From the sequence record NC_048170.1: DNA of 64,000 nucleotides, one strand, 5' to 3'. Each line of letters starts with the position of its first letter. The first letter of the stretch is position 1. Both the position numbers and the translations under genes were made by a program. Positions 14,889 to 63,769 of this stretch are shown piece after piece. Source of the DNA: Escherichia phage vB_EcoM_Goslar. Below the pieces are notes generated by a model. The model searched no databases, was not told the origin of the DNA, and saw nothing but the letters and a program-made list of their open reading frames with translations.

Positions 14889-14922
14889 CTCCTCCCCAGG
14901 AAAGGTGTGGGGAGGAGTTTTT
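14889..14922 (+). terminator. intrinsic-terminator-like hairpin with U tract, plus orientation
   Basis: 10-bp stem ctcctcccca/tggggaggag, 9-nt loop, then TTTTTAT; sits 30 nt upstream of the helicase ATG with no plus-strand gene upstream. Confidence 0.4.
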
Positions 14923-14952
14923 ATCATACATTCTATTAAATCGAGCGCGATT

Positions 14953-27765: not shown

Positions 27766-27796
27766 AGGACTTCCTATTATCGAATTGAGGTACGTC

Positions 27797-33791: not shown

Positions 33792-34625
33792 TCAGCGGAA
33801 CATGTCCAACAGAAAACGTTTTGCAAAGGGGTCGCGTAACTGGTTGACACCGAAGCGTGTACGGTCTTCCGTTGTTAATGGATTCCACTGACTCTGTTTC
33901 GCAAGATCTAACAGCATCCTTTTTATTTTCACCGGCCCACTGTTAAACTGTACGGCTTGGTCACCGAACGTTCCCAAGGTCATCTTTGTAAATGGAAGAT
34001 TCGCAACCTCTGGACGATCCCCACCAGTAAGTTTAGTCGACCACTGATGTTTTCGTTTCAAGGTTCCGGTATGGCTCTCTACCAAAATAAGTTCACCAAA
34101 ACCGGTTCTTGCCAACAAGTCAGAAACATAGTGCGTGGTGATATACGATGTCTTGGTTATCGCGGGTAATTTACAATCCATCGATTCGATATTAGGGAGT
34201 CGATCTACAGACGCCATCAACCCACGATAAAGTGTAGCGAGTCCTTTTTGTTTTTCGGTGTGTGGCTCCTTATGTATAGCGTGCGGATAAACACGCTTTA
34301 TTGACGCATAGGTTGGCGCATATATCCGCAAGCGAATGTGGGGAACGAGTTCATTCACCAACTGTCTTAGCTGCAGTAACTCGTTTTGAAAATCCCCTGT
34401 TATCATCGATAACGGTAATTTATGTTGTTCAACGTCTTCAAAGCTTTCAACGAAATTGCGTGCTAAAGTACGCAGGTTGAACAACCAATCCATCGGTGTT
34501 TCTGGCTGTTGCTGTACTGCTGATAATGTTGCTGACGTCCCTACCGATAAAGGATAATCACCTAACGTGCGGGCGTACATATCGCTCATACCCCACAACT
34601 CCTTCTTATCATGGCAACGTATCAA
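33792..34625 (-). CDS. hypothetical protein
   Basis: 277-aa ORF overlapping the end of the Mre11-like gene. Confidence 0.45.
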   Translation of the reverse strand: MIRCHDKKELWGMSDMYARTLGDYPLSVGTSATLSAVQQQPETPMDWLFNLRTLARNFVESFEDVEQHKLPLSMITGDFQNELLQLRQLVNELVPHIRLRIYAPTYASIKRVYPHAIHKEPHTEKQKGLATLYRGLMASVDRLPNIESMDCKLPAITKTSYITTHYVSDLLARTGFGELILVESHTGTLKRKHQWSTKLTGGDRPEVANLPFTKMTLGTFGDQAVQFNSGPVKIKRMLLDLAKQSQWNPLTTEDRTRFGVNQLRDPFAKRFLLDMFR

Positions 34626-40214: not shown

Positions 40215-41654
40215 CTTACGTGCACCGACGTTTATTAACTCATGGTTATCCACTGAAATACGGCGTTAGGGAAATAATCCTTCTTGCCGCGTTTTGAGAT
40301 TTGCAATGCCATATTACTCGGAGACAATCTGTAATGCCATGCTGCTTCATCGATAGAACTAAACTTCTTTGTTTCACCGTTATCAAAGATGATTTTCAAC
40401 GCCAGTTTAGGTAAATCGTCTTCCGTTTCTACTAATTCGAAAGAATCGATATTCTCTGCCAGCGTCAACGGATCAACTGGTAATATCAGCCAACCAGCAC
40501 GCTGCAATCCTCCACGTAGACTAATTTGTTTATTCAACGCAGGGGTAGCCATGCCAACTAACTTAGCAGCCAGCTTGCGGTCTTTAATATAAAGACGATA
40601 ATCTCCGGTATTATTAATAGCATACACACCAAAGTTATTGAACGATACCTTTCCAGCATCGGAACTAGTAAAGCCTACAAAGTCGTGGCTGTCGGTAGCC
40701 ACGTCGTATTTAAATGCTAATGGCTTGTTTCGACTGCCGCTAAGATACTTCTTGGCTGTAGATACCGATATGTTGAGATATCGTCCAATAGCATTCAAAC
40801 TTTCTAGTTCGATGATTTCTCCTGTCAATATGTCCTTTAACCGAACATTACCCATCGGTATTGGTGGTTTACCGACATAACCCAATTCACGATATGCGTG
40901 TTTCAAGTTATCTGAATCAGTAGCCCATTCCAAATTTTCTAGTCTGTTATCCCAACGCACCCCATTAAGATGATTAGGGACACGACGGATTATACCTGAC
41001 GTCGGATCTGGGTTAAATGTTTCAAGGACAATCTGATGATGGTATTTCACTTTATTGTTCCTAGTGAAAGCGCGATAGTTGTTTTTGCCCGACTTGGGTG
41101 GTTCAGTACGAAACAACACTGTCAGACTAGACACATCTACTATCGTACCGTTCTTATTAACAACGATACCATCAAAACCATTAACAGGACGATAATCAGA
41201 CAAACAATCTTCAGAAATTGCCTGTCCAACTAAAGGTTCACTCAATTTGACCTCCTTTATAAAAGAAGTCGGTGCACGTAATTATCGACTATATCTTCAT
41301 CCTCGTTGCGAGGAGTCTCCCGTTTTGGTCTGTGTTTAACAGAGCCTACTCTACTCGACATCGCGTCTTTCGATAGTCTGTGAGCACACATCTTAACGAA
41401 CATTCGTGGATTCCTAAACAGGTGAACGTTCTTGTTGAGATGCTTCGCTGCGGATTATTCCCGTCCTACCTCTTTTACCCTACCCAGTTCATTACGCTGG
41501 CCCTCATCTGTGTCACCACGATGAGTTGGTGTGTAGTCCGATTACAGAAACTTCCCGTCAATTAGAGAGTTTTAACTACGTTCCTGTTACCAGAAACCCG
41601 ACTCCGACGATATCAATAAATCAACGTAAGTTATTGATTTAATTGAAGAAACTG
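40215..41654 (-). mobile_element. putative group I intron 1 carrying an HNH homing endonuclease gene
   Basis: Minus-sense P AATTGACGGGAAG (41563-41551), Q AATCCGCAGC (41456-41447), R CTCACAGACTATCG (41384-41371), S AAGATATAGTCGA (41297-41285). Candidate internal guide GAGTCGG (41604-41598) pairs with the exon 1 end CCGACTT with G-U at the splice site. 14-bp inverted repeat (41268-41281 and 40216-40229) encloses the ORF; terminal G at 40215. Confidence 0.6.
40235..41245 (-). CDS. HNH homing endonuclease (intron-encoded)
   Basis: KYHHQIV...VPNHLNGVRWDNRLENLEWATDSDNLKH matches the HNH motif; C-terminal helix-turn-helix-like regions; TTG start 5 nt after AAAGGAGGT. Confidence 0.75.
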   Translation of the reverse strand: MSEPLVGQAISEDCLSDYRPVNGFDGIVVNKNGTIVDVSSLTVLFRTEPPKSGKNNYRAFTRNNKVKYHHQIVLETFNPDPTSGIIRRVPNHLNGVRWDNRLENLEWATDSDNLKHAYRELGYVGKPPIPMGNVRLKDILTGEIIELESLNAIGRYLNISVSTAKKYLSGSRNKPLAFKYDVATDSHDFVGFTSSDAGKVSFNNFGVYAINNTGDYRLYIKDRKLAAKLVGMATPALNKQISLRGGLQRAGWLILPVDPLTLAENIDSFELVETEDDLPKLALKIIFDNGETKKFSSIDEAAWHYRLSPSNMALQISKRGKKDYFPNAVFQWITMS

Positions 41655-42910
41655 AAGTCGGCATTATAACCTTTGAGGATCATCACGCTTAACCCGATGG
41701 TGTTATCCTGCGGATCGCGTTTAACCTTGGTGATTTCAAGACATTGGTTACTGCTTCGGTCAAGTGATGGGTTTCGAACAAAGCCACACACAATCCCATC
41801 GAACGGTGTATCAGCAATAAGCTCATCGTGCAGCTCGCTCATCATCGGATGATAATTACGGACATGTTCCGCAACGAACGCACGTGCTGCTCTCGGTGAA
41901 TAACCACGATGGAATAACTTGGATTGGATATGTTCTTTATTGGTTAAAGTAAATGGTGCGTATGGGAAATGCAGATGATAATAACGATGGTTCGCTGTTA
42001 TCGAACTGATTACAGTACGCGTGGTGAATGGATGTAATGTACCTAATATGTTTTTACGTGTAATACCTTTCTTCTTACCGATGAACTCATCGAAAATCGC
42101 CGCGTGGTATTGCAGCAGCTTCAATTGCACTTTCGCCATCCAGTTTTCTTTCTTTCTGGCGCTCAAAGGTGTTGTTGGATGATAGATACTATTCAACGTA
42201 CCGATAGCATCGATCGCACCTTCCATTTTGCTATCTGCATAACGACCGGTCGGCGTATTTTCGATAACGAACATCATGGCCGCAGGAAAGCTGATATACT
42301 GACTGAAGAACTTATCACGATGGATTCGGATGAATTCTCGTAGCGTGTCAACTTTCTCCGTGTTCTTCGGTCCACGTAACGTAGGTCCTTTATACAAGAT
42401 CTCCATGATGCGATCGAAGTTCTGTATAAAGCTATTTACGCCACGACGTATCCCGAATACATCGAATTGCTGCTCCAGATAGTTCTTGAGTTCGATGGGT
42501 CGTTTTACATTTGGACGGTAACTGGCATCAATGAGCCACGTCATCGTTTCAAAGCTTTTGATATTCAACTCGCTTGCCAGCACGAGATGGACCAACGGGT
42601 TAATGAACGCATCGATTCCTTCAGGAACACGCGCCCAAACCGTCGAACGAATCTCTTGTTCTGCTGGGTAGGTTACAACCGTTTTACAGTTTGGACACAC
42701 CGTGCCGAGTAGCTCACCACGATTGTAGAAACCACAACCACATTGTGGTGTGATATCCAACGTATCGCTGGAATAAACACGGGTGATAAAACTGTTTAAT
42801 TTCTTCTTCTCTTCGACGACTTTTGTATCGTAATCGTTCAACAAAATCGGCGTAAAAGGAAGTTCTGCGAGCTGTCTATCGAAACTCACGATATCGAGCA
42901 TGATGGCCAT
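41655..42910 (-). CDS. RNA polymerase beta'-like N-terminal subunit, exon 1
   Basis: Zinc ribbon CGCGFYN...CPNC; GITRKNILGTLHPFTTRTVI parallels [20 protein letters not shown]; ends ...LKGYNADF. The unspliced ORF then reads SFFN-stop. Confidence 0.7.
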
Positions 42911-43002: not shown

Positions 43003-44898
43003 TTAGAACAGGTTGAATGCCCCACCCATGTTGTTAACGCCAACATTCGGACGATCGCTACGTGCGTAGATGTTACCGGAGATGTTACCCAGACCACGAG
43101 CACGTGCTGCCATGTTACCACGAACAGCGGTACCTGCCAGATGCTGGATGTTCTCAGGACGGATGGTGAAGCCAGCATCAGCAGCGGCTTCGATCAGCGC
43201 CTGCAGTGCTAACGGATCGAAGTCGTAACGCATTGCCCAGCCGGTTTGTTCCCAGCTACCAGACAGAACACGATCGATGATTTCGTGACGAGCGACAACA
43301 CGCTGAGACATCGTCATATCGGTACGGTCGAAGCTGTCTTCCCAAGCTTCTACGGTATCCGGGTTAGTGATGTTCATCATGTACAGATCGTCCATATCAC
43401 GAATATCGTGACGGTGACCATCCTGGTGGTTGTAGTGACCCAGCGGGATACGGTTACCGGTAGCGTAGACCAGCGGTAAGCCGTATTGATATTTCTTGCT
43501 GAAGCAACCCAGGGTAACATCATCGAACGCACGGTAAAGCGCTTTGTAACCTTCGGAGATTTCACGGACTTCACCTTCAACTTTGCCCGTATAGATCTTC
43601 TCAGCCGCCGGGATCATACGCAGCAGCCAGCTGTACTCACCTTCTTCCGGTACGTCGATAGAAATCAGCAGAGACGGATACAGTACCTGTTGCAGGAACT
43701 TGTAAATCTGCTCGTTGGTTTGAGTGGACAGATCCAGCGGTGCGGTAACTTCCGGATCCAGTACCATCGCCAGAGCACCCGGGTTATGCGGACCAATACC
43801 ACGGGCAGCGTTGCTGATTAAAGACTGTGCCCACGCCATACCGCTGTTCAGCGTAGCGATGGTGCCAATCAGCCCCAACACGAAAGTGTTCGGCGTGAAC
43901 GCATCCAGCTCCAGCGGGTAAGCGCTGGTCATCACGTAACGCGGCTGGTATTGTACAGTCGGCGGTACCGGATAACCGTTAACCAGAACAGGGCCTTGGT
44001 TGAAGGTCGGGTTCTGCGGGCTGTAGGTCAGGTCGATGTAACCGGTGGTGGCGACCAGACGCTGTTGACTATCGTAATCGCTCATCGCTTGACGGATACG
44101 GTTAGAGATAGTTACAGTGATGTCAGAACGCACAGGGTTACCAACAATATCGCTGTCCTGCATACCGCTGGTGTTATACTGAACGCTGCTGATTGGCTGA
44201 TCGCTTGCCATCATGCCCAGGTTGAACTGCGGCAGACCCAGTTTATCACCGAGACGGATTTCGATCGCGGTTTGGATTGCGTTATCTGCAGCAGACAGCA
44301 GGGTGGTTGCCAGATGCGCAGATTCAGCGGTGATTTCATTGGTCACCACAGCCAGACCAGCGATACGAGCAGTACCATTAGACTTACCGCCAATAGCTGC
44401 ATACATTGCCGCCATGACTTCGTTGATGAACGTACCGTTCAGGTTATCAACCCAGGTACGCGGTACCAGAATGTTACCATGCGGACCTTGTTCTTCACGA
44501 CGCGGCAGCGGAGCCAAACCGGCAACCAGCGGAAGCACATAACCAAAGAAGTGGTTATGGTCACCAACTTTTGCACCACTCATAACGACCAGGGTCGGAT
44601 ACGGTACGCTGTACTGGTTCGGGTCAACCGCAACAAAGATGAAGTCGTCTTTGAACCGGGTATCTTCCAGATATTTCTCCATCAGACGACGGAGATTCAG
44701 TACCTGCTCGGAGCCAGTATTACGGCTAATACGACGGCTCAGTGTACGGTTGATCGTACGCATCGTATGAGTTACTTTAGGCTGGCCAGCAAAATCTGCA
44801 GCGGTTTCCAGCGCCTCATCAGCACGTTGTGCGGTGCGGGTTTCAGCTGCACGAATTTCTACATTATCGTTACCGTTATTACGTACGTCTAAGCCCAT
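43003..44898 (-). CDS. abundant structural protein candidate: chimallin-like nuclear-shell protein (alternative: capsid or sheath protein)
   Basis: 631-aa ORF with codon usage that looks strongly biased; promoter-like motif 67 nt upstream; sits immediately upstream of the beta'-N gene, the arrangement I recall for the phiKZ shell-protein and RNAP genes. No diagnostic motif seen by eye. Confidence 0.45.
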   Translation of the reverse strand: MGLDVRNNGNDNVEIRAAETRTAQRADEALETAADFAGQPKVTHTMRTINRTLSRRISRNTGSEQVLNLRRLMEKYLEDTRFKDDFIFVAVDPNQYSVPYPTLVVMSGAKVGDHNHFFGYVLPLVAGLAPLPRREEQGPHGNILVPRTWVDNLNGTFINEVMAAMYAAIGGKSNGTARIAGLAVVTNEITAESAHLATTLLSAADNAIQTAIEIRLGDKLGLPQFNLGMMASDQPISSVQYNTSGMQDSDIVGNPVRSDITVTISNRIRQAMSDYDSQQRLVATTGYIDLTYSPQNPTFNQGPVLVNGYPVPPTVQYQPRYVMTSAYPLELDAFTPNTFVLGLIGTIATLNSGMAWAQSLISNAARGIGPHNPGALAMVLDPEVTAPLDLSTQTNEQIYKFLQQVLYPSLLISIDVPEEGEYSWLLRMIPAAEKIYTGKVEGEVREISEGYKALYRAFDDVTLGCFSKKYQYGLPLVYATGNRIPLGHYNHQDGHRHDIRDMDDLYMMNITNPDTVEAWEDSFDRTDMTMSQRVVARHEIIDRVLSGSWEQTGWAMRYDFDPLALQALIEAAADAGFTIRPENIQHLAGTAVRGNMAARARGLGNISGNIYARSDRPNVGVNNMGGAFNLF

Positions 44899-46313: not shown

Positions 46314-48467
46314 TTATTCTGCGGTTTCTTGCTTCGGTAAATAACTTGCTGCAATGTCTTGGGCTAACAATGTATTGTTTTTATTCGAGATGAAAATACC
46401 GTAACTTTCCATTAACGCGTAATACGAACGAACGAGCGTAGAGATCAATCGACGAATATCCATACCTTGAATAAAGATATCAGGAAGCCCGGAGGCTTCG
46501 ATCACCGGTAATGGTATCGTTAAGTTGCTTATCGTTTTCTTATCGTTACGTACAATCCAATCACGGAAACGTTGTTGTAACCCTTTATCCTCCCAGGAAT
46601 CAATCCAATCGTTAAGAAGCGTTTTGTTCTTCGTCGCCAACGGCACACGAACCCCAACATAGGGCGGTTCCTGGCAATGGCCGTACGATTGAGCAAACAC
46701 CTCTTCCCACATATCGTAAGACTGTTTCGTTACCGCAACATGTGGCTTCACTTTAACACGTGTTAAGAAATCGGGATCACCTCGTTTCATGGACTCAACG
46801 ATTTCGTTTTCTAACGAGATAATATCATCAAGAACCAATCGAATGCTGATCTTCTCGTTACGTAACAGCTTATCCATGATACCACACATCATGCGTTCAA
46901 CACGTTTGACGATCATTTTTGGTGCTGACGCGTCACGCATAACCGGACCTTTCAATTCCAGCTTCGGTGGGTTGATAGGAACCCCCTCACGCATGGTCAT
47001 GTAACCGTAATAGTTTTTACCCATCGAGGTTAACGACAGAATCAAGAACATATATTCGTTCTTCATTTCCATCACGTACATATGCTCTTTCGCTACACCG
47101 ATATTACCAGAACACATCGCCATCAGATGAACCGTAATCTGCGTAACCAGATAGATAAGCGTATTTGCTAAGCGCGTCGAAACTGGATTGATCTCCATAT
47201 TTCCAAATCGCCACTGCACCCACTCCTGGCAGGTAAACACCGTCGAGTCGGTATCAGACAACACACCCACTTCACGGATTGCTGATGGGAAAGCATAAAC
47301 GCCAGCCGGTTGGTTCTCGGTACGCCAGAATGCCATAATCAAATCTGCGTAGCTTTGAATACGCTGTAGCATTAATTTTGTCGTCGCCGCAGTAAGACGA
47401 TAACCAAGTTCATTTCCTTTTTCTAGCGCTACGTAAATCGCTTCCCCGTTCAAGAACTCCGTGCATTGTGCTGTAATCCAAGCGACCGTGTTGTTATCCA
47501 TGGAAGCAATAATGGCTTTAGCCTCTTCCATCGTTTCAACAGGTTCGGATGCCAGCTCACATAACGAGTCAAGAAAATCTCGAACAAATTCAGGATTAAG
47601 CTCACGTAACGAGTACAGGTTATTGCTGTACATGTAGCAGGCACGTTCCAACGGTGTTAAACCGGTAATTAACTCCCGGATAGTCAGTTCTTTCTCTGGG
47701 TCGAAAGTATATCGATGCAAGCATTTCGATACGTTAGCCCAAACCTCTTCCGGCGTAGGGTAATGTAGTTTGTATTTTACCATTACCTGCTCAATGGCTT
47801 TGCGATCGCTGTTACGAACAATACTTACGATGTTTTCAATTGCGATATCACAATCGTAATAATGGAAATTGCCCGCAAGGAAGCGTTCGTTGTTCGCATT
47901 GGCTGAACCTGAAGCACAGCGACATGTTGTCGTTAAACTTGGATGCGCGATCGGATTATAAAAAGGGTTAAACTTGGACGCCTGGGTTCCTGACAAACTG
48001 TTGTTGTCTAACTTGGTGTTGGTTTGTCGTTTATCGTGTAACTCAGCTTCGTCTTTACGTCCGTGTGCTTGCGCTATCGACATTTGTTTCTTTTGTTTCT
48101 TACGCAACTTACCGTTTTCAACCGCGAAGTCGCTTAGCACACTGGAACGTGTTTCACGTGGATAACAGTTAGCCCATACCGGCGTGATAATTAAATTATT
48201 TTCTTTAATATCATTGAAGTATTGGCTGAACTTGATGACTTCTTTTTCACGATTTCCTTCGGTACGCTGTGTTAATACAAGACAGTCGGGATCAACCATC
48301 CCGTATTTTCCACCGGGACGAACCGTATCAAGGACAAACTGCAACGCTTCCTGCTGTGATATCCCACGCATGCGCATTAAGAACAGGGTATAATCCTGTA
48401 CCGCTTCTTTGGTCATATCCAACGTACGACCATATCCGTTTTCATCGTAAAAGAACGGATTTTCCAT
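46314..48467 (-). CDS. hypothetical large protein
   Basis: 717-aa ORF; contains VLSDTDS, superficially like a polymerase motif C, but no other polymerase motifs confirmed. Confidence 0.5.
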   Translation of the reverse strand: MENPFFYDENGYGRTLDMTKEAVQDYTLFLMRMRGISQQEALQFVLDTVRPGGKYGMVDPDCLVLTQRTEGNREKEVIKFSQYFNDIKENNLIITPVWANCYPRETRSSVLSDFAVENGKLRKKQKKQMSIAQAHGRKDEAELHDKRQTNTKLDNNSLSGTQASKFNPFYNPIAHPSLTTTCRCASGSANANNERFLAGNFHYYDCDIAIENIVSIVRNSDRKAIEQVMVKYKLHYPTPEEVWANVSKCLHRYTFDPEKELTIRELITGLTPLERACYMYSNNLYSLRELNPEFVRDFLDSLCELASEPVETMEEAKAIIASMDNNTVAWITAQCTEFLNGEAIYVALEKGNELGYRLTAATTKLMLQRIQSYADLIMAFWRTENQPAGVYAFPSAIREVGVLSDTDSTVFTCQEWVQWRFGNMEINPVSTRLANTLIYLVTQITVHLMAMCSGNIGVAKEHMYVMEMKNEYMFLILSLTSMGKNYYGYMTMREGVPINPPKLELKGPVMRDASAPKMIVKRVERMMCGIMDKLLRNEKISIRLVLDDIISLENEIVESMKRGDPDFLTRVKVKPHVAVTKQSYDMWEEVFAQSYGHCQEPPYVGVRVPLATKNKTLLNDWIDSWEDKGLQQRFRDWIVRNDKKTISNLTIPLPVIEASGLPDIFIQGMDIRRLISTLVRSYYALMESYGIFISNKNNTLLAQDIAASYLPKQETAE

Positions 48468-49190: not shown

Positions 49191-49712
49191 TTATTTAAAA
49201 ATGTATTCGTATCCGAAGGTCGTCGCCGACCAGACCCGGATAGATGATAGTGTTCCGCCACGATAAAACGTTTTTGTGAATTCCATATCCTGGGCAACAC
49301 GATAATAAACACGTCCGATAATACGCACGATAAGGTTTCGTGATAACGATCTCTCCTCGCAGTATTCATCGATAAAGTCATCGTCGATATCCGATAAGAC
49401 AACATCCGCAATTTCTTGCAGTAGGTTCCTCATCAGCATCTGCCTTCCTTCGGTACCCCACCCAGACAAACAGTAATCGTCTTCTGCCTGACTATAGATG
49501 TCGTTAACCGCCTGTTCGAGCAGTTGCTCAAGATAGTAGTCATCGCGTTTTATAACGTGGCGACGGCGCTCAGTGGCGTATTTTTCCATCCTGTGTTTCT
49601 CTTGTTCGGCGTATGTATTAACGACGCCACAGTCTTTTCTGGATCGTCCCACAATGCACGACGAAAACTGGATACTACCATAACGGTAGGATAGATTTGT
49701 ACAACCTCCCAT
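49191..49712 (-). CDS. hypothetical protein (start uncertain)
   Basis: 173-aa ORF; overlaps the next ORF by about 160 nt, so the true start is probably internal. Confidence 0.4.
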   Translation of the reverse strand: MGGCTNLSYRYGSIQFSSCIVGRSRKDCGVVNTYAEQEKHRMEKYATERRRHVIKRDDYYLEQLLEQAVNDIYSQAEDDYCLSGWGTEGRQMLMRNLLQEIADVVLSDIDDDFIDEYCEERSLSRNLIVRIIGRVYYRVAQDMEFTKTFYRGGTLSSIRVWSATTFGYEYIFK

Positions 49713-50038
49713 CCGTAACGATGTGCGTTAGTCGTACGTCCGACATTGAACAGACATAGCTGATTTAAGAAACAGAGCTGCATCTTCGTAAACAACACCA
49801 TGTCTTCACGTTTAACGTATCCGAGGATATACGCATTCTCGAACGCCTCGCGTGACAAGACGGGACGATTAAGATACCGCAACGACAGTACCAACAACGT
49901 TGTTATGCGCAACGGATCTTCTGGGTCATTCATGGTGCTCAGCTCTGCTTGTAACCAGTCAGGGATAGTAACCGTCAGACGATAGGTATCTGTTCCACGA
50001 TCAACCACATTCAATGTTGAAAAAGGCAACATATCCAT
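49550..50038 (-). CDS. hypothetical protein
   Basis: 162-aa ORF. Confidence 0.4.
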   Translation of the reverse strand: MDMLPFSTLNVVDRGTDTYRLTVTIPDWLQAELSTMNDPEDPLRITTLLVLSLRYLNRPVLSREAFENAYILGYVKREDMVLFTKMQLCFLNQLCLFNVGRTTNAHRYGWEVVQIYPTVMVVSSFRRALWDDPEKTVASLIHTPNKRNTGWKNTPLSAVATL

Positions 50039-50576
50039 GAATTCCTTCTAGCTCGAGGTTGTTCTCGCCGGTCTTCGGTAATAACCCACTGGCCGTTAAC
50101 ATCTGCGTCATCGAGTAGTCAAAGCACGGAAATATCAGGTTAACGGTTTCCTGGATCGCGTCAACATAACTATAAATGGCTTCATAATACTCACCGTCAT
50201 GATCTACGCTAACCAGTTCCTGACACAGTTCTTCGCTTATCATTTCATATACCGGTGGATACCACGATTGAAATGGTCGCTGCATACGTAACGACCAATA
50301 CTCGTACGTCGTATACTGAAGCACGTCATAAGCCGATACGTTAATGCGGTCGAAGAAAGCATACTTGTCCATATGCTGATACAACATCGCCAGCACGGTT
50401 TCCAAGCACACCGATATCCGCACGCCGTCATCTTTCCCGTTAAGAAAATTAGGTTTCTGCCGATAACGCACAAATGCCGACGGCTTTGATTGCATTATTC
50501 CACCACCAACCATAACGTCATACTCGTATCTAACGTAAAATTGAAATGCCACCAATCTTCTACACGTGGAATCCAC
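50001..50576 (-). CDS. hypothetical protein
   Basis: 191-aa ORF. Confidence 0.4.
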   Translation of the reverse strand: MDSTCRRLVAFQFYVRYEYDVMVGGGIMQSKPSAFVRYRQKPNFLNGKDDGVRISVCLETVLAMLYQHMDKYAFFDRINVSAYDVLQYTTYEYWSLRMQRPFQSWYPPVYEMISEELCQELVSVDHDGEYYEAIYSYVDAIQETVNLIFPCFDYSMTQMLTASGLLPKTGENNLELEGIHGYVAFFNIECG

Positions 50577-51046
50577 GTACGAAGGATTTGGTTAACTTCG
50601 CTTCGCATCACCGATAAACGACAACGAAAATCGAACTTCTCATCATGACCGTAGTCTTCATGCATGAAAACTTCATCCAAAACGAACTCAAGTTGCATGT
50701 CGACATCACGGCCAGAGATATTCCGTTTGTACAAATACAACTCAATCGTGTCGTAAAGCAACGTATGAATATCATAATTTCCGTTCGGTGAGAAATAAGG
50801 TAATCGCTCATCGAGCATCGAAAACAGATATTCACTGTAGTTTAATAACGGGATGATGTACCGACGCCCTGTCTGTGGTGTGCGAATATGTATCGAAACC
50901 TGACTTGGGCGCGGAATAACCGACGGCTTAGAATCGTCTCTCTGAAATTGCTCTAAAGATCGCAACAAAGGTGGCCGCATTGTAACTCTCCAACGCCCAA
51001 TTGTAAGGCCCTTCCAACATGTGTTCCCATACGTGAATAAACTCAC
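50495..51046 (-). CDS. hypothetical protein (start probably internal, near MRPPLL at about 50980)
   Basis: 183-aa ORF. Confidence 0.4.
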   Translation of the reverse strand: MSLFTYGNTCWKGLTIGRWRVTMRPPLLRSLEQFQRDDSKPSVIPRPSQVSIHIRTPQTGRRYIIPLLNYSEYLFSMLDERLPYFSPNGNYDIHTLLYDTIELYLYKRNISGRDVDMQLEFVLDEVFMHEDYGHDEKFDFRCRLSVMRSEVNQILRTWIPRVEDWWHFNFTLDTSMTLWLVVE

Positions 51047-51557
51047 TACCGAAGACAGGCTCTAGTGCCATAGTGAGATTCGTAAGTTCTGACGCGGCCG
51101 CATGGTAAGCATCAACATGTCTTTCCATTGACGGATCGTCTTCATTGAAAATACGTTCTGTATCGCCAGCGCGCTCAATAAGTTCGGTAATGAGATCTGT
51201 CCATGTCTCGTGACACGTCATCATTTCCTGTTCTCGACTTAGTATGCCGATGTCTGCGTGGACGCTGGACTCGAACCGGTCTAAAAGGACCCGAAGAACG
51301 TGCACCTTGTCGATGTATTTCACCGTTATCCAGGAAAGCGGTTGCCACCGACTCAGCATCCATCCGGTACTCGGGAACCCCAAACTCATATAGTACGGGT
51401 TGCACCGGACCGAAGACGGAGCGACGTTGTTTAAATCGCTCCTTAAGGGCAAGGCCTTGTTTAATATAAACGGGTTCATTGGCGAGCTGTTCCGCTTTTC
51501 GTTTTGCGTGAGCCAATCGAAGTTCTTCCAATTGCCCAAGCCATTCAAATTGTTCAT
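50928..51557 (-). CDS. hypothetical protein (start uncertain)
   Basis: 209-aa ORF overlapping its upstream neighbour by about 380 nt in another frame. Confidence 0.35.
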   Translation of the reverse strand: MNNLNGLGNWKNFDWLTQNEKRNSSPMNPFILNKALPLRSDLNNVAPSSVRCNPYYMSLGFPSTGWMLSRWQPLSWITVKYIDKVHVLRVLLDRFESSVHADIGILSREQEMMTCHETWTDLITELIERAGDTERIFNEDDPSMERHVDAYHAAASELTNLTMALEPVFGSEFIHVWEHMLEGPYNWALESYNAATFVAIFRAISERRF

Positions 51558-52152
51558 CTGTTAGCTCCTGGGGACGTTCAACAATCGCGCCAGATGGGCA
51601 GACATTGATCGTGATGTTAATTGACGGCATCGCCATCACTCGAGGATTACTATTACGTACGCGGACAACGTGTTCGGTTGCTGATTTACGATCGACGCAA
51701 TACTCTGTTTCTTGGAACTCAAATGCTTTTAACGGTGTTGGTTTTGTTTGACGTTTAGGAACGCGGCCAAGATCGACAATATAGGCATAATCGCACACAC
51801 GTTCTATTCCGTAAATACGGTTATCCGACCAGTTCTTACCAAACAGCTTGTTGTGATGATAAGACAAATATTCGGTTACCATACCCTGGACAACATCGAA
51901 GTCTTCTCGAAATTCAGGTTGGTACCAAATCGGGCCGAGAATATCTGCGAACGATTCATGACGATATCGAGGATCATGTCGAGTCCAGGTCATTCTCTGA
52001 TTAAGATCGAAATCCACCAACAACTCGGTTAATTGCAATTTTTCCTTCGGAGAAAGCTGGCGTTGATGATGCAAACTCAGGCAATCGATAAGCGGTAATG
52101 AAACCCACGATGCTAATGTGTACAAATCGATCCTGGCTAATCTCTTGGTCAT
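51175..52152 (-). CDS. hypothetical protein
   Basis: 325-aa ORF; C-terminal about 40 residues Arg/Ser-rich and overlapping the next ORF. Confidence 0.4.
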   Translation of the reverse strand: MTKRLARIDLYTLASWVSLPLIDCLSLHHQRQLSPKEKLQLTELLVDFDLNQRMTWTRHDPRYRHESFADILGPIWYQPEFREDFDVVQGMVTEYLSYHHNKLFGKNWSDNRIYGIERVCDYAYIVDLGRVPKRQTKPTPLKAFEFQETEYCVDRKSATEHVVRVRNSNPRVMAMPSINITINVCPSGAIVERPQELTDEQFEWLGQLEELRLAHAKRKAEQLANEPVYIKQGLALKERFKQRRSVFGPVQPVLYEFGVPEYRMDAESVATAFLDNGEIHRQGARSSGPFRPVRVQRPRRHRHTKSRTGNDDVSRDMDRSHYRTY

Positions 52153-52243
52153 ACTCTTTTCCTAAGTCCCCATTGTTTATACACACGATATCTGGGAATA
52201 GTTAAAATATACGGCGTAAAACGAAGCAGGAGAGTTTCTGACG

Positions 52244-52564
52244 TCATTTTCTCCCTCTTCGAATACCACCGATACCTCTTTCGTCTAAGACGTCCCAAGC
52301 ACGCTTTATTTCATCCTCCGTTGCTCTGGTATCTGGAGGGACAACCATAACACAGTCGTGGAATGGCCAATGTGTAGGTCTGGGGTTAGCGAACAAATCA
52401 TCCCATTCAAATGTCCATTCTTTCTTTGAGCGATTGTAGTAGAGCGTAAGGTACGTGTTGGTATACGCCGGATAACCACGCATAACTTCAATATCCTTAC
52501 GATCTTGCCGTTCCTGATTCCAATCGTTAAACCGCTTTCTTATTTTCTCCCACCACTTTCCCAT
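52244..52564 (-). CDS. hypothetical protein
   Basis: 106-aa ORF. Confidence 0.4.
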   Translation of the reverse strand: MGKWWEKIRKRFNDWNQERQDRKDIEVMRGYPAYTNTYLTLYYNRSKKEWTFEWDDLFANPRPTHWPFHDCVMVVPPDTRATEDEIKRAWDVLDERGIGGIRRGRK

Positions 52565-52617
52565 GCTTTCTCCTACACGGCATAAAAGCCTGCCCCGAAG
52601 GACAGGCTCGATAGAAC

Positions 52618-52818
52618 TTAATAACCATCCAATTTCAATGAAGGATGGTTGACGATATGTGCGTGTTTTGCTGGGTCATATAGCTGATATGGAAAATAGC
52701 CATGCCATTGACGGCCTTGGCATTTCGTACACAGGAACTGACCAACACCTTGTCGATTCTCGTAAGCGAGTTCGGTACTATCAACATGTCCGCAACGTTC
52801 GCAGATAAACAGCGACAT
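52618..52818 (-). CDS. hypothetical zinc-ribbon protein
   Basis: CERCGH...CTKCQG cysteine pairs. Confidence 0.4.
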   Translation of the reverse strand: MSLFICERCGHVDSTELAYENRQGVGQFLCTKCQGRQWHGYFPYQLYDPAKHAHIVNHPSLKLDGY

Positions 52819-52855
52819 AGCGCATCCCCATTCACTTGAACCTTTTGGTTCGGCA

Positions 52856-53836
52856 TTAGAAAAGCAAGAAACCGCTATTCTTCGCTTCCGCTACAGTTTC
52901 GTCACCAACTTTCGGTGCTTGTTGACGTGCGTTACGATGTTCGATGTAACGTTTCGCTTCGTCAGCGATTTGTTTGATAATACCCCCTAAACGATCGGTA
53001 CTTAAAACAAACGACGTCGCTTCACGAATCGGGCTGCTTTCAGGCACAAAACCATCACAGCTATAAATAGCGCTAACACCCATGACTTTTGTCGCGTCTT
53101 TCGGATAAAGCGTACAGAAAGCAATCGGGCTATCGTTCTCTTTCGTCCATTCGTATCCCATGAACGTATTCAGTTCGGTGATCGTCGGTTCCAAACCGGT
53201 AACACGTGGATGGTTTAAGAAGTTTTCCAGGTCGGCGCTGTCAAGACGACGGTTCTCGCCAGAAAACAGAACACAAAGCTGGCTAATAACAACCTGCACG
53301 TCCAGGTTGACATCCTGCTCCGATTTCCCATTTTCGCCATTCATGTGATAGCTAACAATCACTGGACGTTTCAACCCTTCTGCAGCCGCCATCAGTCCTT
53401 TGAAGGTGCGATCGGCGTTGATCGTCTGGCGCTCATCATCGAACGAGGCAACGATACAACACACCACACGTTCACCGCGTTCCAGCAGGTTAGCAACCAA
53501 CGCAGGACCGGCAACAGAACCTGAACCACCGCTCAAACTAAAGACCACGATATTAAATTTACCTGGCGTATGCTTATTGAGAATACCTGGGATTTGTGAA
53601 CAGATCAGTTCAGCGTTCTCATCACGCTTCTTACCAGAACCGTCTAACTCACGACCAGCTGCATCTTTAAAGATGTAAATATGATCGTCGCCCAGTGTGC
53701 TATCGCGTAGGTTAGCGCGGCTGGTATCAACATACGTCATGCTGTGTAATCCTTTCGCGACTTCGCCTTCAAATGCTGAGCCGATTTCGCCACCACAACC
53801 ACCGACAGCCCAAATATGTACTTGGTTCTCTTGCAT
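52856..53836 (-). CDS. phuZ: tubulin/FtsZ-like GTPase, PhuZ-like
   Basis: N-terminal VHIWAVGGCGGEIG (FtsZ GVGGGGxN-like) and FSLSGGSGSVAGPALV (tubulin signature GGGTGSG-like); about 326 aa with an acidic C-terminal tail. Confidence 0.65.
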   Translation of the reverse strand: MQENQVHIWAVGGCGGEIGSAFEGEVAKGLHSMTYVDTSRANLRDSTLGDDHIYIFKDAAGRELDGSGKKRDENAELICSQIPGILNKHTPGKFNIVVFSLSGGSGSVAGPALVANLLERGERVVCCIVASFDDERQTINADRTFKGLMAAAEGLKRPVIVSYHMNGENGKSEQDVNLDVQVVISQLCVLFSGENRRLDSADLENFLNHPRVTGLEPTITELNTFMGYEWTKENDSPIAFCTLYPKDATKVMGVSAIYSCDGFVPESSPIREATSFVLSTDRLGGIIKQIADEAKRYIEHRNARQQAPKVGDETVAEAKNSGFLLF

Positions 53837-53900
53837 GTGAACTCCTAATTTAATATGTATTTAACGCACAATGAATCTTTCTTTGCTAAAGGGGTGACCC

Positions 53901-54743
53901 ATGGGTGCTATTGACTACAGTGTAGATCGTATCTGTCGTACAATACCGGCAGACATCCTACAGTATTGCTATATCGATCGCTACGACTGGCGTAATCGCT
54001 ATCCTCGTTCCGTAGAAGACATCATTACCGATTGGGTAATCCGTAAACGGGTTATCGGCGACATCGATATCTACGGGGGACTACAAACCGTTATTCCCCT
54101 TGATGATGCCGGTGTCACTATCGAAGAAGTCACCATCAACTGTTATGTTTTCCACATTCCGTTGGAAGCCACGCAGGGACGTTATATCACGTCTGCATTA
54201 TCCATTATCTCAGGGAGCGTGAACAACTACGGAATAAACTATAACGGGCAATGGGGCGCTTTCAACCAAACCCAATTTCAACGTCAGCTTTGTGGGTGGA
54301 ACCCCGCAAGCAACACGTTACAGCAAGGGATGAACGCGTTCGGTCCCATGAACGTTCTTAGTACAGCCAACGTTGATATCATCGCACCTAACACCATCAT
54401 GGTGAACAACGTCACGCCGGTACAATTTCCCCTGAGCCTACGCTGTTTCCTTGCCCACGATCCGGAACTTACCAACCTCAGCATGGAGGTTTGGAACGAC
54501 TTCTACAAACTCTGTTTATACGCCACACAAAGTGACATCTACAACAGAACCGTTATCCGTCTCGATAGAGGTGTTACAGCACAAGGACAAGAAGTCGGTG
54601 CATTCAAGGAATACATCGATCGCTTTGCCGATGCTGAAAACACATATCAGGAATTCCTGAACGAAACGTGGGCTGGCGTTGCTGCCTGGAACGATCCACA
54701 AACTAAACGTCGCGCCATTCGACTACAAACCGGTTACTTCTGA
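53901..54743 (+). CDS. hypothetical protein
   Basis: 280-aa plus-strand ORF followed by hairpin plus T tract. Confidence 0.45.
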   Translation: MGAIDYSVDRICRTIPADILQYCYIDRYDWRNRYPRSVEDIITDWVIRKRVIGDIDIYGGLQTVIPLDDAGVTIEEVTINCYVFHIPLEATQGRYITSALSIISGSVNNYGINYNGQWGAFNQTQFQRQLCGWNPASNTLQQGMNAFGPMNVLSTANVDIIAPNTIMVNNVTPVQFPLSLRCFLAHDPELTNLSMEVWNDFYKLCLYATQSDIYNRTVIRLDRGVTAQGQEVGAFKEYIDRFADAENTYQEFLNETWAGVAAWNDPQTKRRAIRLQTGYF

Positions 54744-55351
54744 TTAACGACAGCTTCCTCCCTCGGCGTTTTCGAGGGAGGTATTTGCCGTTTGAACACT
54801 TTCAGCATGTTCGCAAAATCAGCAGCAATAATACAGGCCGAGCTTGATAGCTTATTGCTGAAAATGAGATCGTCCGGTAAACAATCGAACTGAATACCGT
54901 ATTGCGTCTTTGTCTCATCAACGATCAATGATGGTGTCGATCTTGTCTTCGCGATGTCGGTGATATACAAACGTAAAAATAATTCACCGTCTTCGCTATC
55001 CATAAAACGATAAGCGTTACCAGAAAACGCAGCATGCGGCGTAACGATAAATTGAACACGATCGTCGGTCGGATGGATATTTAACCAACGTTCGATATCA
55101 TTACTACTCACATTTCGCATATTTACTACGGTAAAAGCAAATAGCGTATCGTGATGTTTGGAATAATGCAGCACATACGCCGCATCTTTCTTTCCGTGAA
55201 TCCCTTCAATGTATTCTATTGTCGTATAGCCGGATTTATATAGCTTTACTTGCGGTTTATCACTCATCATAACAACCCTTCCCGTTTCATCGCGGCACGC
55301 ATACTTGCGTAAAGCGCATTCTTCATTGCACCCGGACGCAACGGATAACAA
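54734..55351 (-). CDS. hypothetical protein
   Basis: 205-aa ORF. Confidence 0.4.
   Translation of the reverse strand: MLSVASGCNEECALRKYACRDETGRVVMMSDKPQVKLYKSGYTTIEYIEGIHGKKDAAYVLHYSKHHDTLFAFTVVNMRNVSSNDIERWLNIHPTDDRVQFIVTPHAAFSGNAYRFMDSEDGELFLRLYITDIAKTRSTPSLIVDETKTQYGIQFDCLPDDLIFSNKLSSSACIIAADFANMLKVFKRQIPPSKTPREEAVVNQK
54758..54781 (+). terminator. hairpin terminator of the plus-strand gene
   Basis: 9-bp stem cctccctcg/cgagggagg followed by TATTTG; overlaps the last codons of the convergent minus ORF. Confidence 0.45.
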
Positions 55352-55566
55352 ATCTCATATCGACGTCCTTGTTTTACAGCAATTTTCCTTCCGTTCAGAA
55401 ACAACGTGCCGTTATCCAGCAACAACTCACCTTGTAGTACCATGAGTCCTGCTTTAACATGACGTCCTTCTTCTTTAGTTAAGACCTTATAGCCGTGTTT
55501 ATCCAATAACCACAATTCGTAGATACCGTGCGCAGCCTTCGGCATTACTTTCTTCTTCGTCGTCAT
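55267..55566 (-). CDS. hypothetical protein
   Basis: 99-aa ORF. Confidence 0.35.
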   Translation of the reverse strand: MTTKKKVMPKAAHGIYELWLLDKHGYKVLTKEEGRHVKAGLMVLQGELLLDNGTLFLNGRKIAVKQGRRYEICYPLRPGAMKNALYASMRAAMKREGLL

Positions 55567-55578
55567 GGAAGATCCTCC

Positions 55579-55953
55579 TTAAACTCCTTGTCGGATCATC
55601 ACCAACCGGAGCATGTTGTATTCCAATGTAGCGCTTTCTAATTCGAATTCATATCGATACCAGAAATTCGGCTCTAATTGACCTACAACACATTTACGAA
55701 CATCTGTCTGCACCTTCCTCGACAACACCTGTAACAGTTGTGTTATCTCCGGCTTGAAGTAATACGCCAAACCTAACTGATCAGAATAAAACAGGCCACA
55801 ATCAAAGATGGCCTGTAAAATAACATATTCAACCATCAGGTGACGCGCATCGGGGTCAGGGAATGGCGAACGTAAAGCGAGGTCTAACACATCGACAATT
55901 GGGCCGACATAAATGGCGGCACGGTACTCACGAATAACACTGATGTTATCCAT
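55579..55953 (-). CDS. hypothetical protein
   Basis: 124-aa ORF. Confidence 0.4.
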   Translation of the reverse strand: MDNISVIREYRAAIYVGPIVDVLDLALRSPFPDPDARHLMVEYVILQAIFDCGLFYSDQLGLAYYFKPEITQLLQVLSRKVQTDVRKCVVGQLEPNFWYRYEFELESATLEYNMLRLVMIRQGV

Positions 55954-55966
55954 GATAACCTATTCG

Positions 55967-56791
55967 TTAACTGTCGCTTTCTGATGTATCGACGTAGTTG
56001 AAAATACGATCCCGTAAACACTCGTAACGAGGCAACGCACTAAGAATGATCATCTTCAGCTGCATCGCGATCGATACACGTTCTTCATCCGACGCATCGT
56101 CTCCCCATTTACCCGGCTTAACCTGAATGGGTTCGTGCGGATCCTGCGGGAATATAAAACTTAACAACAGATAATCCGTACGGAACTCCCATACTTCTCG
56201 ACCGTCGTTATCGGTTTCTTTACGCAACGTGAAGAGTTGGCGTTCGGTGGTTGGATCCAGCATCAGCGGTCGGCCACGAACAATCTCCAGTTTACGTGGG
56301 CTGACGAACGTCGTACGTTCAGGAAGGTATTTTTCAACATCATCCGTATCCAACAAGAACAAAATGATATCGTCGAAATACTTCGGTGCGTACGTGTGTA
56401 TCGGTTCGCCGTCGCTATACGAAGAGATCTCTTGAAGTATTGGTGTCTTACACGAAAAGTTCTGGCACGAACCACGGGTTATCGGTAAGGTGGTCCATTG
56501 ATGTTCTGTAGACAATTCAACAGGCACCAACGGATAATCATCGATGAAGACCACGCACGTTGTACTAATGGGTATTCTTCCATCATTACCTGGTTCAAAA
56601 ACCAAACGTATCTTACCGGTAATCAGCGCCATCTCATCTGGCATTAAATGGCTTGCTGAACGAGCAAGTCTGAAACCGCTCGCCTGTTTATAAGGTTCGG
56701 GTTTATAGCCACGGACAATAAGAGAGACATCCGCAAGTTCAACGCTCACGAATACATCTTTGGTGTCTTCATTGTTCGTCGTTAACGTCAT
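55967..56791 (-). CDS. hypothetical protein
   Basis: 274-aa ORF. Confidence 0.45.
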   Translation of the reverse strand: MTLTTNNEDTKDVFVSVELADVSLIVRGYKPEPYKQASGFRLARSASHLMPDEMALITGKIRLVFEPGNDGRIPISTTCVVFIDDYPLVPVELSTEHQWTTLPITRGSCQNFSCKTPILQEISSYSDGEPIHTYAPKYFDDIILFLLDTDDVEKYLPERTTFVSPRKLEIVRGRPLMLDPTTERQLFTLRKETDNDGREVWEFRTDYLLLSFIFPQDPHEPIQVKPGKWGDDASDEERVSIAMQLKMIILSALPRYECLRDRIFNYVDTSESDS

Positions 56792-57806
56792 TGTTCATTT
56801 TCTCCATTGCAACAAATCGTTCAAGCTCGCGTAATAAACGCTCTTTTAACGCAGTATCAACTTCCGGAGCATGTTTATCACGATACCACTCTGTCCCGTT
56901 GTATTGCAGGCTAACGTGCCATGTTCCTAACGGGCTTTCCTCTGCAGCAGCAATGAAATTCTTAACGCCGGTTTTGGTAGGATACTCCATGATAGGAACA
57001 GCCTGCTTCAGATCCATTACGGTAAGATCCTGGAAGTTATAATCCAGAAGCGTTAATGCACGTTTGTCGCGTAACAGTAACCCGCAATCTAAGATAGTGA
57101 AATCGATACCCCAAAATTGTAGCTTACCACCCGTACTGATAGGAATATGACCGCGATAGACCGCGAGATAGATCTCCCCTTTATCGGTTTCTTTATTGTA
57201 TCCTGCGATGAATGCTGCGGTAATTAACGGCTGATCGCCTTTCGCAAAGAAAACAGGATGCGTACGATAAAGCCAATCATTACGAATTAAATCTGATACT
57301 TGACCTAAACGTGCCGTAGGCACCATTGTCGATCCTAAGTCACCATTACTAACTTCGAATTGGTAATATTCAAACAGAACACCGTCGACTTCTTCTTTGG
57401 CGTATGGCTCACGAGCCGGGTTAGCGAGTAGGTAACGCAACTTGCTATCGATTTCGGTTACGCGTTCCTCATGGGTATCCATACGACTAGCGACGACGAA
57501 AGCGGCCAGATTACGTACGCTAAGGAACACGTCGTCTTTCTCTTGGTCAGTTAGCCCTTCTTCATCTGCTATCGTTGTCCAATGCAGTGGTCCCTCCACC
57601 ATCTTTAACCATTTGTCTTCACGTTCTGGGTAAACAAAGGGTTTATGTACAGGAACATTGGTATGCTGAACGCGCAATAGTAACGAACAAGGGGATTGCA
57701 TTATCGACTCCCATGGCACTATACCACTCGTGACAGCGATGACGTGACGATTAAGAACAAGAGAAGCTGAATAGGTGATGTTATCTAATCCTGGTAATTG
57801 ATCCAT
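56769..57806 (-). CDS. hypothetical protein
   Basis: 345-aa ORF preceded by a 300-bp AT-rich intergenic region. Confidence 0.45.
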   Translation of the reverse strand: MDQLPGLDNITYSASLVLNRHVIAVTSGIVPWESIMQSPCSLLLRVQHTNVPVHKPFVYPEREDKWLKMVEGPLHWTTIADEEGLTDQEKDDVFLSVRNLAAFVVASRMDTHEERVTEIDSKLRYLLANPAREPYAKEEVDGVLFEYYQFEVSNGDLGSTMVPTARLGQVSDLIRNDWLYRTHPVFFAKGDQPLITAAFIAGYNKETDKGEIYLAVYRGHIPISTGGKLQFWGIDFTILDCGLLLRDKRALTLLDYNFQDLTVMDLKQAVPIMEYPTKTGVKNFIAAAEESPLGTWHVSLQYNGTEWYRDKHAPEVDTALKERLLRELERFVAMEKMNNDVNDEQ

Positions 57807-58061
57807 GATAGGAATCCTTAGTATGTTTGATATGTTGTTTAATTGACATATTAAGTTTAAAAGAGGTTATGTTTTACGTAATGTTAATAACGTATTCTTA
57901 TCTCTATTAAGTTATGTTCTATCTAAAGATAGTAAACAGATATAATGCTCCCCACCTCCCCATTCTCCCAAGTAATACTGGCCTACCGGCCCTCTCCTTT
58001 TTAAGGGAGAGAGTAAGCATTCAGTATTGCTCAAATGAATAAGCAAAACAGTATAAACTTA

Positions 58062-61537: not shown

Positions 61538-63769
61538 TTAGAAAAAACCGCCCGGACGGTATTGACCCATCGTCATCCACGCATTACGAGAAATATTCCG
61601 TTCATTCGAAGAGCGGCTTATTTGACGATAAGTATTCGCTCGTTCCTCCCTTGCTTTCGTGATCATCGCATCAATAGAAACAGCCGCTGAATCTTCCCCA
61701 CGTATTTTTCCTTTATACGTAAGAAGCTCTGCCTCCAATCGATCCAAGATAAGGCCGTTGGTTTCGGTCTTAAGCAACTCATAGATTTCAGCAACGCGTT
61801 GACGAAGCTTCGCCTGCTGTTGGTTAAGATAAGCTTCATACGGATCGATTTCACCCGTCACAGATGCCGGTAAACGACTCATGACTTTAAGCGGATCGAT
61901 ACCATAATGAATCTGTTTCTTAGCGCGCTTGATGAACCACATCGCTAACATCCAGGCGAACGTCATGTCGTCGTGCATTCCATCCTGGTGATCGACACGC
62001 CCATCTTTGATAACCAATCCAAGGATCTCGGAACACAACATCTTATCACGTAATTGCCCGCGGGTTTCTACAATACCTTCCATCAAGATGTCGGAATACA
62101 ACTCCATACGTTTGCGTGCATCCGTTGTGAAGCCCAAATGCCGTTTACGTTGAGCATACCAACTTTCATCACGCATGCTCAATGGTAATTTCAGGTCTTC
62201 GAACATCGCTGGGTTATCAGCATGTCTGTCCACAATTGTGTTGTATACGCGTTTGAATACGTCGATGCCCGCTTGTCTCAGGAACTCTTCAATTGCGTCT
62301 AACAACATGATTGCGCTGCTTTTACGTTCAGGAATCAACGTAACGTTCTTAAAACGCATCATGAAGTTGGCCATCCAACGAGCAAAAGAAAGCAAGCTCA
62401 GTTTATTAAAACGTCCTGTCGCAACAACTTCTGCTGTTTCTACATCCACCATCACCAAACCGATAGCGTCACGACCTATTGCATCGCTGGTGTCTAAACC
62501 AGCAACCACCTTATTGTTCTGCATGTATGTCTCGATTTGACCTCGAGGTATATACCAGTTAATGCAGTAGCCTTCAGGTGAGATCTCGATGTGGTCGATT
62601 TCACGTTGTCCTGCCATGATCATCTCAACCATCTCAGCGGTTAACGGGCTTTCTGCTGAACCGTTGGTCCAGATGTTCATGTAGTCGCGGTCTTTCTGAA
62701 GTTTATCACCTTCCGTTTCGTTCATGGTTTTTGCTAACCATTCATCACTGAATCCCAACTGAGCATGGTTCCATTGTGCCCCGATCCTGACGGTCGCTTT
62801 GCTGAGCTCGCACGGTACGTTGTTCAATACCGTCTGATGCAGATGCTTTTCGTTACGGCAGTCAAAGAAACTTTCAGAGAACGGCGCGGAACGCATGAAA
62901 ACTTCATAAGCCCATTTGCCTTCGCGTTTATCCAATTCACCTGCTGTTGTCGTATAGATGATACTTGTCAGGTCGCCGTTGCTTAATGCTTCATCGCGTG
63001 CCGCACCCATCGCACCGATACCAGCAGGAACAATAATTTCGATGTATTTCGTAAACGCGGTTTCGTCGCTATGGAATAGCGGGGTTGTTAGACCACGGCC
63101 GATGTTTGTTGCTTGTTTCTTATCCGAACGTGGAATCTTTACCGATAACTTGTTCTTGAAACGTGTGTAGGTTACGTTCTCTTTGTTCGATGAATCCCGA
63201 CTATCCAGCGTCCAGAGATACGCAGGTAACAGATCGCGTATACTACGCACGTCTTCTACCGTTTTCGTACGGGCGTCACCGTCTTTTGTTAATTGAATAA
63301 CCTCGGTGTTTCGACTACGAACATAGGTTAGATAACAGAACAGTCCTAACATGGTCATGGATTTACCGGTCTGACGTATCTGTATCTGATACCAGTTCGT
63401 TCGGGTAAATATCCCCCAGAGCATCGGAATGTTACCGCGGTTAGCACGGAATGAAATTTTGTTATCACCCGCTTTAGCCGGAACACGCATCACTTCACGG
63501 AAGAAGTACCATGGATTAAGATAGCATTCCGCACTGATCATCTGAATCTGTTCTGACGTCAAATTCGGTGCGTGGGGATCAACACCAATCAATCTTGGGT
63601 TTAATAACGCCATGAAAAACGCAGAGTTCCGGACACCGAATTCACGACGATACAAGATCGCTAAATCACGCCAACTTGTGTTTGTTGTTTCCCAGTGTGG
63701 AACAGCCTGAGGAAAATAATCCCAATCTTCCTCAAACAGGATGATTTTCTTCGGATCGACAATCGACAT
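61538..63769 (-). CDS. terminase large subunit
   Basis: Walker A-like IQIRQTGKS, Walker B-like LFHSDETAF, C-terminal acidic nuclease-type motifs (LVMVDVETAE, DHQDGMHDDMTFAW). Confidence 0.6.
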   Translation of the reverse strand: MSIVDPKKIILFEEDWDYFPQAVPHWETTNTSWRDLAILYRREFGVRNSAFFMALLNPRLIGVDPHAPNLTSEQIQMISAECYLNPWYFFREVMRVPAKAGDNKISFRANRGNIPMLWGIFTRTNWYQIQIRQTGKSMTMLGLFCYLTYVRSRNTEVIQLTKDGDARTKTVEDVRSIRDLLPAYLWTLDSRDSSNKENVTYTRFKNKLSVKIPRSDKKQATNIGRGLTTPLFHSDETAFTKYIEIIVPAGIGAMGAARDEALSNGDLTSIIYTTTAGELDKREGKWAYEVFMRSAPFSESFFDCRNEKHLHQTVLNNVPCELSKATVRIGAQWNHAQLGFSDEWLAKTMNETEGDKLQKDRDYMNIWTNGSAESPLTAEMVEMIMAGQREIDHIEISPEGYCINWYIPRGQIETYMQNNKVVAGLDTSDAIGRDAIGLVMVDVETAEVVATGRFNKLSLLSFARWMANFMMRFKNVTLIPERKSSAIMLLDAIEEFLRQAGIDVFKRVYNTIVDRHADNPAMFEDLKLPLSMRDESWYAQRKRHLGFTTDARKRMELYSDILMEGIVETRGQLRDKMLCSEILGLVIKDGRVDHQDGMHDDMTFAWMLAMWFIKRAKKQIHYGIDPLKVMSRLPASVTGEIDPYEAYLNQQQAKLRQRVAEIYELLKTETNGLILDRLEAELLTYKGKIRGEDSAAVSIDAMITKAREERANTYRQISRSSNERNISRNAWMTMGQYRPGGFF

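Follow-up and report, generated by a model that had tools for sequence, protein, structure and literature searches.

Does the open reading frame at 52856–53836 of the Escherichia phage vB_EcoM_Goslar sequence analyzed here (64,000 nucleotides of record NC_048170.1; hereafter, the window) encode a phage tubulin, and what does such a gene say about the phage that carries it? A first-pass annotation had proposed a Tubulin/FtsZ-like PhuZ of about 326 aa from two short glycine motifs, and had read the gene as the mark of a nucleus-forming jumbo phage in which PhuZ spindles position the phage nucleus. We find, with a probability of about 98%, that the ORF encodes PhuZ (gp201) of Goslar, a phage tubulin of the tubulin/FtsZ superfamily.

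The ORF at 52856–53836 encodes Goslar PhuZ

The coding sequence occupies 52856–53836 on the minus strand and runs from an ATG to a TAA stop over 326 aa, in agreement with the first-pass annotation, as given by both the ORF list and the exact identity of its product. A Shine-Dalgarno sequence, AGGAG (53842–53846, minus strand), can be read 5 nt 5′ of the ATG. A megablast search with 50000–58000 of the window had no match in a phage collection, which evidently lacks the source genome. An exact-sequence look-up returned Goslar_00201, ‘tubulin PhuZ’ (QBO63993.1 / YP_009820885.1), identical over all 326 residues, and a PDB sequence search returned entries 9pm9 and 9pmk at 100% identity over residues 2–326. 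The former, titled ‘PhuZ Tubulin from phage Goslar (locally refined monomer)’, has a release date of 2025-12-24; literature text searches found no paper describing it, the Avs5 paper that names PhuZ being unrelated. The gene is therefore the same as that of Goslar gp201 (QBO63993.1; 9pm9/9pmk), with no difference, and the protein is already known, having been published, experimentally characterized, and structurally solved. The identity to Goslar_00201 and to 9pm9 bears out the call of a Tubulin/FtsZ-like PhuZ.

A scan of the surroundings of the gene for sigma-70 promoters and terminators returned about as many as chance alone would give, which is unsurprising because the phage uses its own RNA polymerases. 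Downstream of PhuZ, across a 37-nt gap, a minus-strand ORF of 66 aa (52618–52818) carries two CxxC pairs (CERC...CTKC) and is zinc-ribbon-like; it had no PHROG match. A second co-oriented downstream ORF (52244–52564, minus strand, 106 aa) matches PHROG 5903, a family of unknown function, with an E value of 2.2e-18. The minus-strand stretch at 49550–52152 holds a run of ORFs of 162, 191, 183, 209, and 325 aa, none with a PHROG match, whose mutual overlaps are mostly about 40–80 nt. Two of these, 50928–51557 and 51175–52152, overlap in different frames by about 380 nt, which means that a start is mis-set in at least one of them or that one of the ORFs is spurious.

Goslar PhuZ is a divergent member of the PhuZ family

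At the level of sequence families, the protein matches PHROG 4733, ‘tubulin PhuZ’, with an E value of 1.9e-68, residues 1–323 aligning to profile positions 1–321 of 323. The PDB sequence search also recovered PhuZ from phiKZ (3zbp, E 5e-29, residues 5–292) and from 201phi2-1 (3r4v, 3rb8, and 3j5v, E about 4e-15). With tblastn, 171 phage records gave homologues, none of which reaches 60% identity; the records are mostly those of jumbo phages of 218–322 kb, from Pseudomonas, Erwinia, Serratia, Klebsiella, Ralstonia, and Vibrio, and in many of them the homologue is annotated as tubulin or PhuZ. A homologue search yielded 23 relatives at 29–97% identity, giving an alignment (A1) of 24 sequences that we used for conservation and for modeling.

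Pfam matches are weaker. The Tubulin family PF00091 is matched by Goslar PhuZ at an E value of 8.3e-7 and 29.9 bits, below the 33-bit gathering score, with VGGCGGEIG aligned to the N-terminal part of the profile; all 24 family sequences match it (best 3.6e-12). The phage tubulin C-terminal domain PF22334 (TubZ_C_2) is matched by 19 of 24 relatives and has no match in Goslar PhuZ at E values up to 10. Since the C-terminal region of the model still superposes on PhuZ structures, the missing match reflects sequence divergence and not absence of the domain. This also fits the published account, in which Goslar PhuZ is a ‘divergent homolog’ that shares 26.96% identity with 201phi2-1 gp59 (PMC9891218). 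Taken together, the sub-threshold Pfam score, the missing PF22334 match, a tail less acidic than those of relatives, and the low identity are those of a divergent PhuZ and not of a non-member.

Many assemblies of E. coli, Shigella, and Salmonella also contain proteins at least 90% identical to Goslar PhuZ and to its chimallin, carried by contigs of about 235–259 kb, which indicates that complete Goslar-like jumbo phage genomes sit in bacterial assembly records. A paper on ‘bacterial assembly-associated phage sequences’ is consistent with this.

The GTPase loops are intact and conserved

In tubulin/FtsZ proteins, a set of conserved loops binds GTP, and the T7 loop activates hydrolysis across the longitudinal interface. 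We assigned these loops in Goslar PhuZ on the basis of established superfamily features, and A1 shows how far their residues are conserved. The two motifs singled out by the first-pass annotation are both present. The glycine box VGGCGGEIG (aa 11–19, 53780–53806, minus strand) corresponds to the phosphate-binding T1 loop, with conservation of 90% or higher at G12, G13, and G15 across the 24 sequences. The tubulin-signature-like GGSGSVAGP (aa 103–111, 53504–53530, minus strand) corresponds to T4; G103, G104, and V108 are invariant, conservation at S105, G106, S107, and P111 is 90% or higher, and its GGSGS aligns with GGASGS of phiKZ PhuZ and GGGSGS of 201phi2-1 PhuZ.

Three further motifs, all on the minus strand, share this pattern. 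DTSRAN (aa 37–42, 53711–53728) has D37, T38, S39, and N42 invariant. In DGSGKKR (aa 65–71, 53624–53644), which is T3-like by its position among tubulin/FtsZ loops, G66, G68, and R71 are invariant. The T7-like loop RRLDSAD (aa 196–202, 53231–53251) bears the catalytic aspartates D199 and D202, both invariant, as are N140, Y163, and N166 elsewhere in the protein. The nucleotide-binding and catalytic loop residues of Goslar PhuZ are thus all intact. The catalytic T7 aspartate is D190 in 201phi2-1 PhuZ and D202 in Goslar PhuZ.

The predicted fold is closest to solved PhuZ structures

The first-pass annotation had named a structure prediction as a check, with failure to find a tubulin/FtsZ fold as the outcome that would count against it. 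AlphaFold2 run from the single sequence gave a pLDDT of 38.6, which is unusable. Run from alignment A1, it gave a model with a mean pLDDT of 86.5 and a pTM of 0.86, in which an N-terminal half of alternating strands and helices is followed by another domain, of mixed structure, and then by a long helix (aa 281–306) and a poorly ordered tail of low pLDDT at the C terminus. A Foldseek search of the PDB placed 9pm9 first (TM 0.91, 100% identity), with phiKZ PhuZ (3zbq/3zbp, TM 0.77–0.84; 0.81–0.84 for 3zbq) and 201phi2-1 PhuZ (3r4v/3rb8, TM 0.80–0.84) next. These were followed, at probability 1.00 and E values of 1e-13 to 1e-9, by c-st TubZ, CetZ, many FtsZ structures, Bacillus thuringiensis TubZ, and eukaryotic tubulin. 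The model thus predicts the two-domain tubulin/FtsZ fold, with the solved PhuZ structures as its closest neighbors.

The comparison extends to details. Goslar PhuZ has in common with phiKZ gp039 (3zbp/3zbq) and 201phi2-1 gp59 (3r4v, 3j5v) the fold, loops T1, T4, and T7, and the extended helix and tail at the C terminus, yet identity in the structural alignments is only about 22–27%, and the Goslar protein differs in its missing PF22334 match and its nearly neutral tail. With TubZ, CetZ, FtsZ, and eukaryotic tubulin it has in common the GTPase fold and the signature loops, but at TM values of 0.55–0.71 and identities of 11–17%, and the biology of those proteins (plasmid segregation, cell shape, cytokinesis, and microtubules) is unlike that of PhuZ.

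The ranking bears on a rival reading in which the protein is a segregation tubulin of the TubZ type. With TubR as its adaptor and a centromere, such a protein would partition the genome of a plasmid or prophage and would have no action on a phage nucleus. TubZ structures do match the model significantly (TubZ of Clostridium phage c-st, 4xcq and 3v3t, and B. thuringiensis TubZ, 2xka, at E values of 1e-13 to 1e-10), the phiKZ homologue 3zbq was deposited under the name ‘TubZ’, and 3 of 24 relatives weakly match PF13809 (Tubulin_2). However, TM values are 0.56–0.65 to TubZ against 0.80–0.91 to PhuZ structures, and the neighboring ORFs have no TubR-like or DNA-binding PHROG match, showing only PHROGs of unknown function or nothing. 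The genome, moreover, is that of a lytic, chimallin-encoding phage, and published imaging of filaments around the nucleus that drive its rotation (PMC9891218) effectively refutes a partition role. We regard a TubZ-type partition tubulin as extremely improbable, and the identification as PhuZ stands.

The C-terminal tail is nearly neutral

The first-pass annotation had also described an acidic tail, a feature that the sequence does not bear out, even though the whole protein is acidic (pI 5.1). The tail, APKVGDETVAEAKNSGFLLF (aa 307–326, 52859–52918, minus strand), follows the long helix in the model and is of low pLDDT there. Its 20 residues include 3 D/E and 2 K/R, for a net charge of –1, and the last 30 residues include 4 of each, for a net charge of 0. 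With respect to an extended acidic tail that binds the next subunit, then, the model, which is of a monomer, provides the helix and the tail but the charge is close to neutral. In relatives, the net charge of the last 20 residues is typically –2 to –4, and the sequence closes with D-x-G-[LMV]-[VLI]-[LFIY]; the terminal glycine and three hydrophobic residues are kept in Goslar PhuZ, and conservation of G322 in A1 is at least 90%. The nearest two members of its clade (P0031 and P0032, 61% and 56% identical) have tails of net charge –1, as in Goslar PhuZ.

In phiKZ PhuZ, R230 is part of a salt bridge that is reported as needed for self-assembly and as not conserved in phage RAY. In a pairwise alignment, Tyr228 of Goslar PhuZ lies opposite R230, a placement that passes through a weakly conserved loop and serves as a lead only.

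Filament dynamics and the phage nucleus

The function of Goslar PhuZ has been addressed in infected cells, where a GFP-gp201 fusion forms a vortex (PMC9891218). The published GTP-hydrolysis mutant, D202A, needs far less induction to assemble, has a lower critical concentration, and is dominant negative (PMC9891218). It abolishes the vortex and lowers the share of rotating nuclei from 97% to 29%, while the position of the nucleus is unaffected (PMC9891218; reviewed in PMC12908238). The lower critical concentration and the dominant-negative effect imply that wild-type Goslar PhuZ hydrolyzes GTP.

These observations also weigh on a reading in which the protein is a degenerate tubulin fold that neither hydrolyzes GTP nor polymerizes dynamically, its role being that of a static scaffold or a decoy for host FtsZ: the sub-threshold Pfam score, the lack of a PF22334 match, and the atypical, nearly neutral tail would be in keeping with it, but the invariance of the intact loop residues across relatives and the behavior of D202A (PMC9891218) leave it next to no credence.

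For an active PhuZ, the following mechanism can be proposed, in which we infer the roles of the individual loops and of the tail by homology. The N-terminal Rossmann-like domain would bind GTP through T1 (GGCGG), T3 (DGSGKKR), and T4 (GGSGS), and subunits would stack head to tail such that T7 (LDSAD, with D199 and D202) completes the GTPase site of the next subunit. Hydrolysis of GTP would make the filaments dynamic, and, as other PhuZ proteins do, the protein would contact the neighboring subunit through its long C-terminal helix and tail. During infection of E. coli, the filaments form a vortex-like array around the chimallin-walled phage nucleus, push against the membrane, and rotate the nucleus, a motion that presumably distributes docking capsids across the nucleus surface.

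Both phiKZ and 201phi2-1 are, like Goslar, chimallin phages, and their PhuZ proteins mutated at the catalytic aspartate are dominant negative (PMC9891218; PMC12908238). They differ in the array, which is a bipolar spindle in phiKZ and 201phi2-1 and a vortex turning the nucleus but not centering it in Goslar (PMC9891218; PMC12908238). The view that PhuZ spindles position the phage nucleus is accordingly sound for phiKZ-like phages but does not carry over to Goslar, where D202A leaves nuclear position unchanged.

Chimallin, not PhuZ, marks the nucleus-forming phage

The window also encodes the chimallin ChmA (Goslar gp189), at 43003–44898 on the minus strand, 12 gene numbers (about 8 kb) away from PhuZ. 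This ORF of 631 aa is Goslar_00189, exactly identical to QBO63981.1 / CHMA_BPGOS and identical to PDB entry 7sqt, ‘Chimallin’ (1434 bits), and it matches PHROG 4795, ‘nuclear shell protein’. Its exact sequence is found on one contig, of 237,307 bp. Chimallin is the nuclear shell protein on which PhuZ filaments act.

Beta/beta-prime-like subunits of a split multisubunit RNA polymerase are encoded by three genes (21525–23531, 25597–27930, and 41639–42910, all on the minus strand), which match PHROGs 3015, 3295, and 2987 at E values of 1e-117 to 1e-180, and such genes are typical of phiKZ-like/Chimalliviridae phages. The window further holds genes for a DNA polymerase (46314–48467), helicases (14905–17034 and 19954–21528), an SbcD-like nuclease (34609–35751), a thymidylate synthase, and a terminase large subunit. 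Its content fits Chimalliviridae.

The type of phage proposed by the first-pass annotation is thus independently confirmed by chimallin and by the RNA polymerase genes, whereas the use of PhuZ as the family marker is not. PhuZ is an accessory gene that is absent from about a third of Chimalliviridae, for which chimallin is the defining gene (PMC12908238). Of these two genes, both encoded in the window, the true marker is thus chimallin.

Other genes in the window

Several other genes in the window have unusual features. The thymidylate synthase ORF (3633–4652, minus strand, 339 aa) matches PHROG 160 with residues 1–339 over profile positions 33–308 only, and another ThyA profile aligns as two separate segments; taken together, the matches suggest, from the sequence, an insertion relative to typical phage ThyA. 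In the terminase large subunit ORF (61538–63769, minus strand, 743 aa), the large subunit profiles (PHROG 2 and PHROG 32359) match the N-terminal ~210 residues only, and the remaining ~530 residues have no PHROG match at an E value of 1e-5.

About 390 nt downstream of the gene for the nvRNAP beta-prime-like subunit (41639–42910), there is an HNH endonuclease ORF (40235–41245, minus strand, 336 aa) that matches PHROG 59 with an E value of 2.9e-23. The arrangement recalls phiPA3, in which an RNAP gene has an intron-encoded HNH endonuclease (PMC12908238). We considered an intron-like interruption of the Goslar RNAP gene by the HNH ORF and rejected it, as the alignments of relatives run through to the C terminus of the 423-aa product. 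An Rfam search found no group I intron in the window, and no exon-like continuation of the RNAP gene was evident in the stop-to-stop translation. The HNH endonuclease looks free-standing.

Implications

The cell biology of Goslar PhuZ was already public (Birkholz et al. 2022, Cell Rep), and the structures 9pm9 and 9pmk were released in December 2025. The identification of PhuZ at this locus accordingly brings no new biology, and its value is one of validation: a divergent phage tubulin and a nucleus-forming jumbo phage were correctly recognized from two short glycine motifs. The PhuZ proteins of the Goslar clade stand apart from other PhuZs in their PF22334-divergent C-terminal domain, their nearly neutral tail ending in G-F-L-L-F, and an apparent tyrosine in place of R230; as a tentative and on balance unlikely proposal, these differences would bear on why one array is a vortex and the other a spindle. 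PDB entry 9pmk may already hold the answer.
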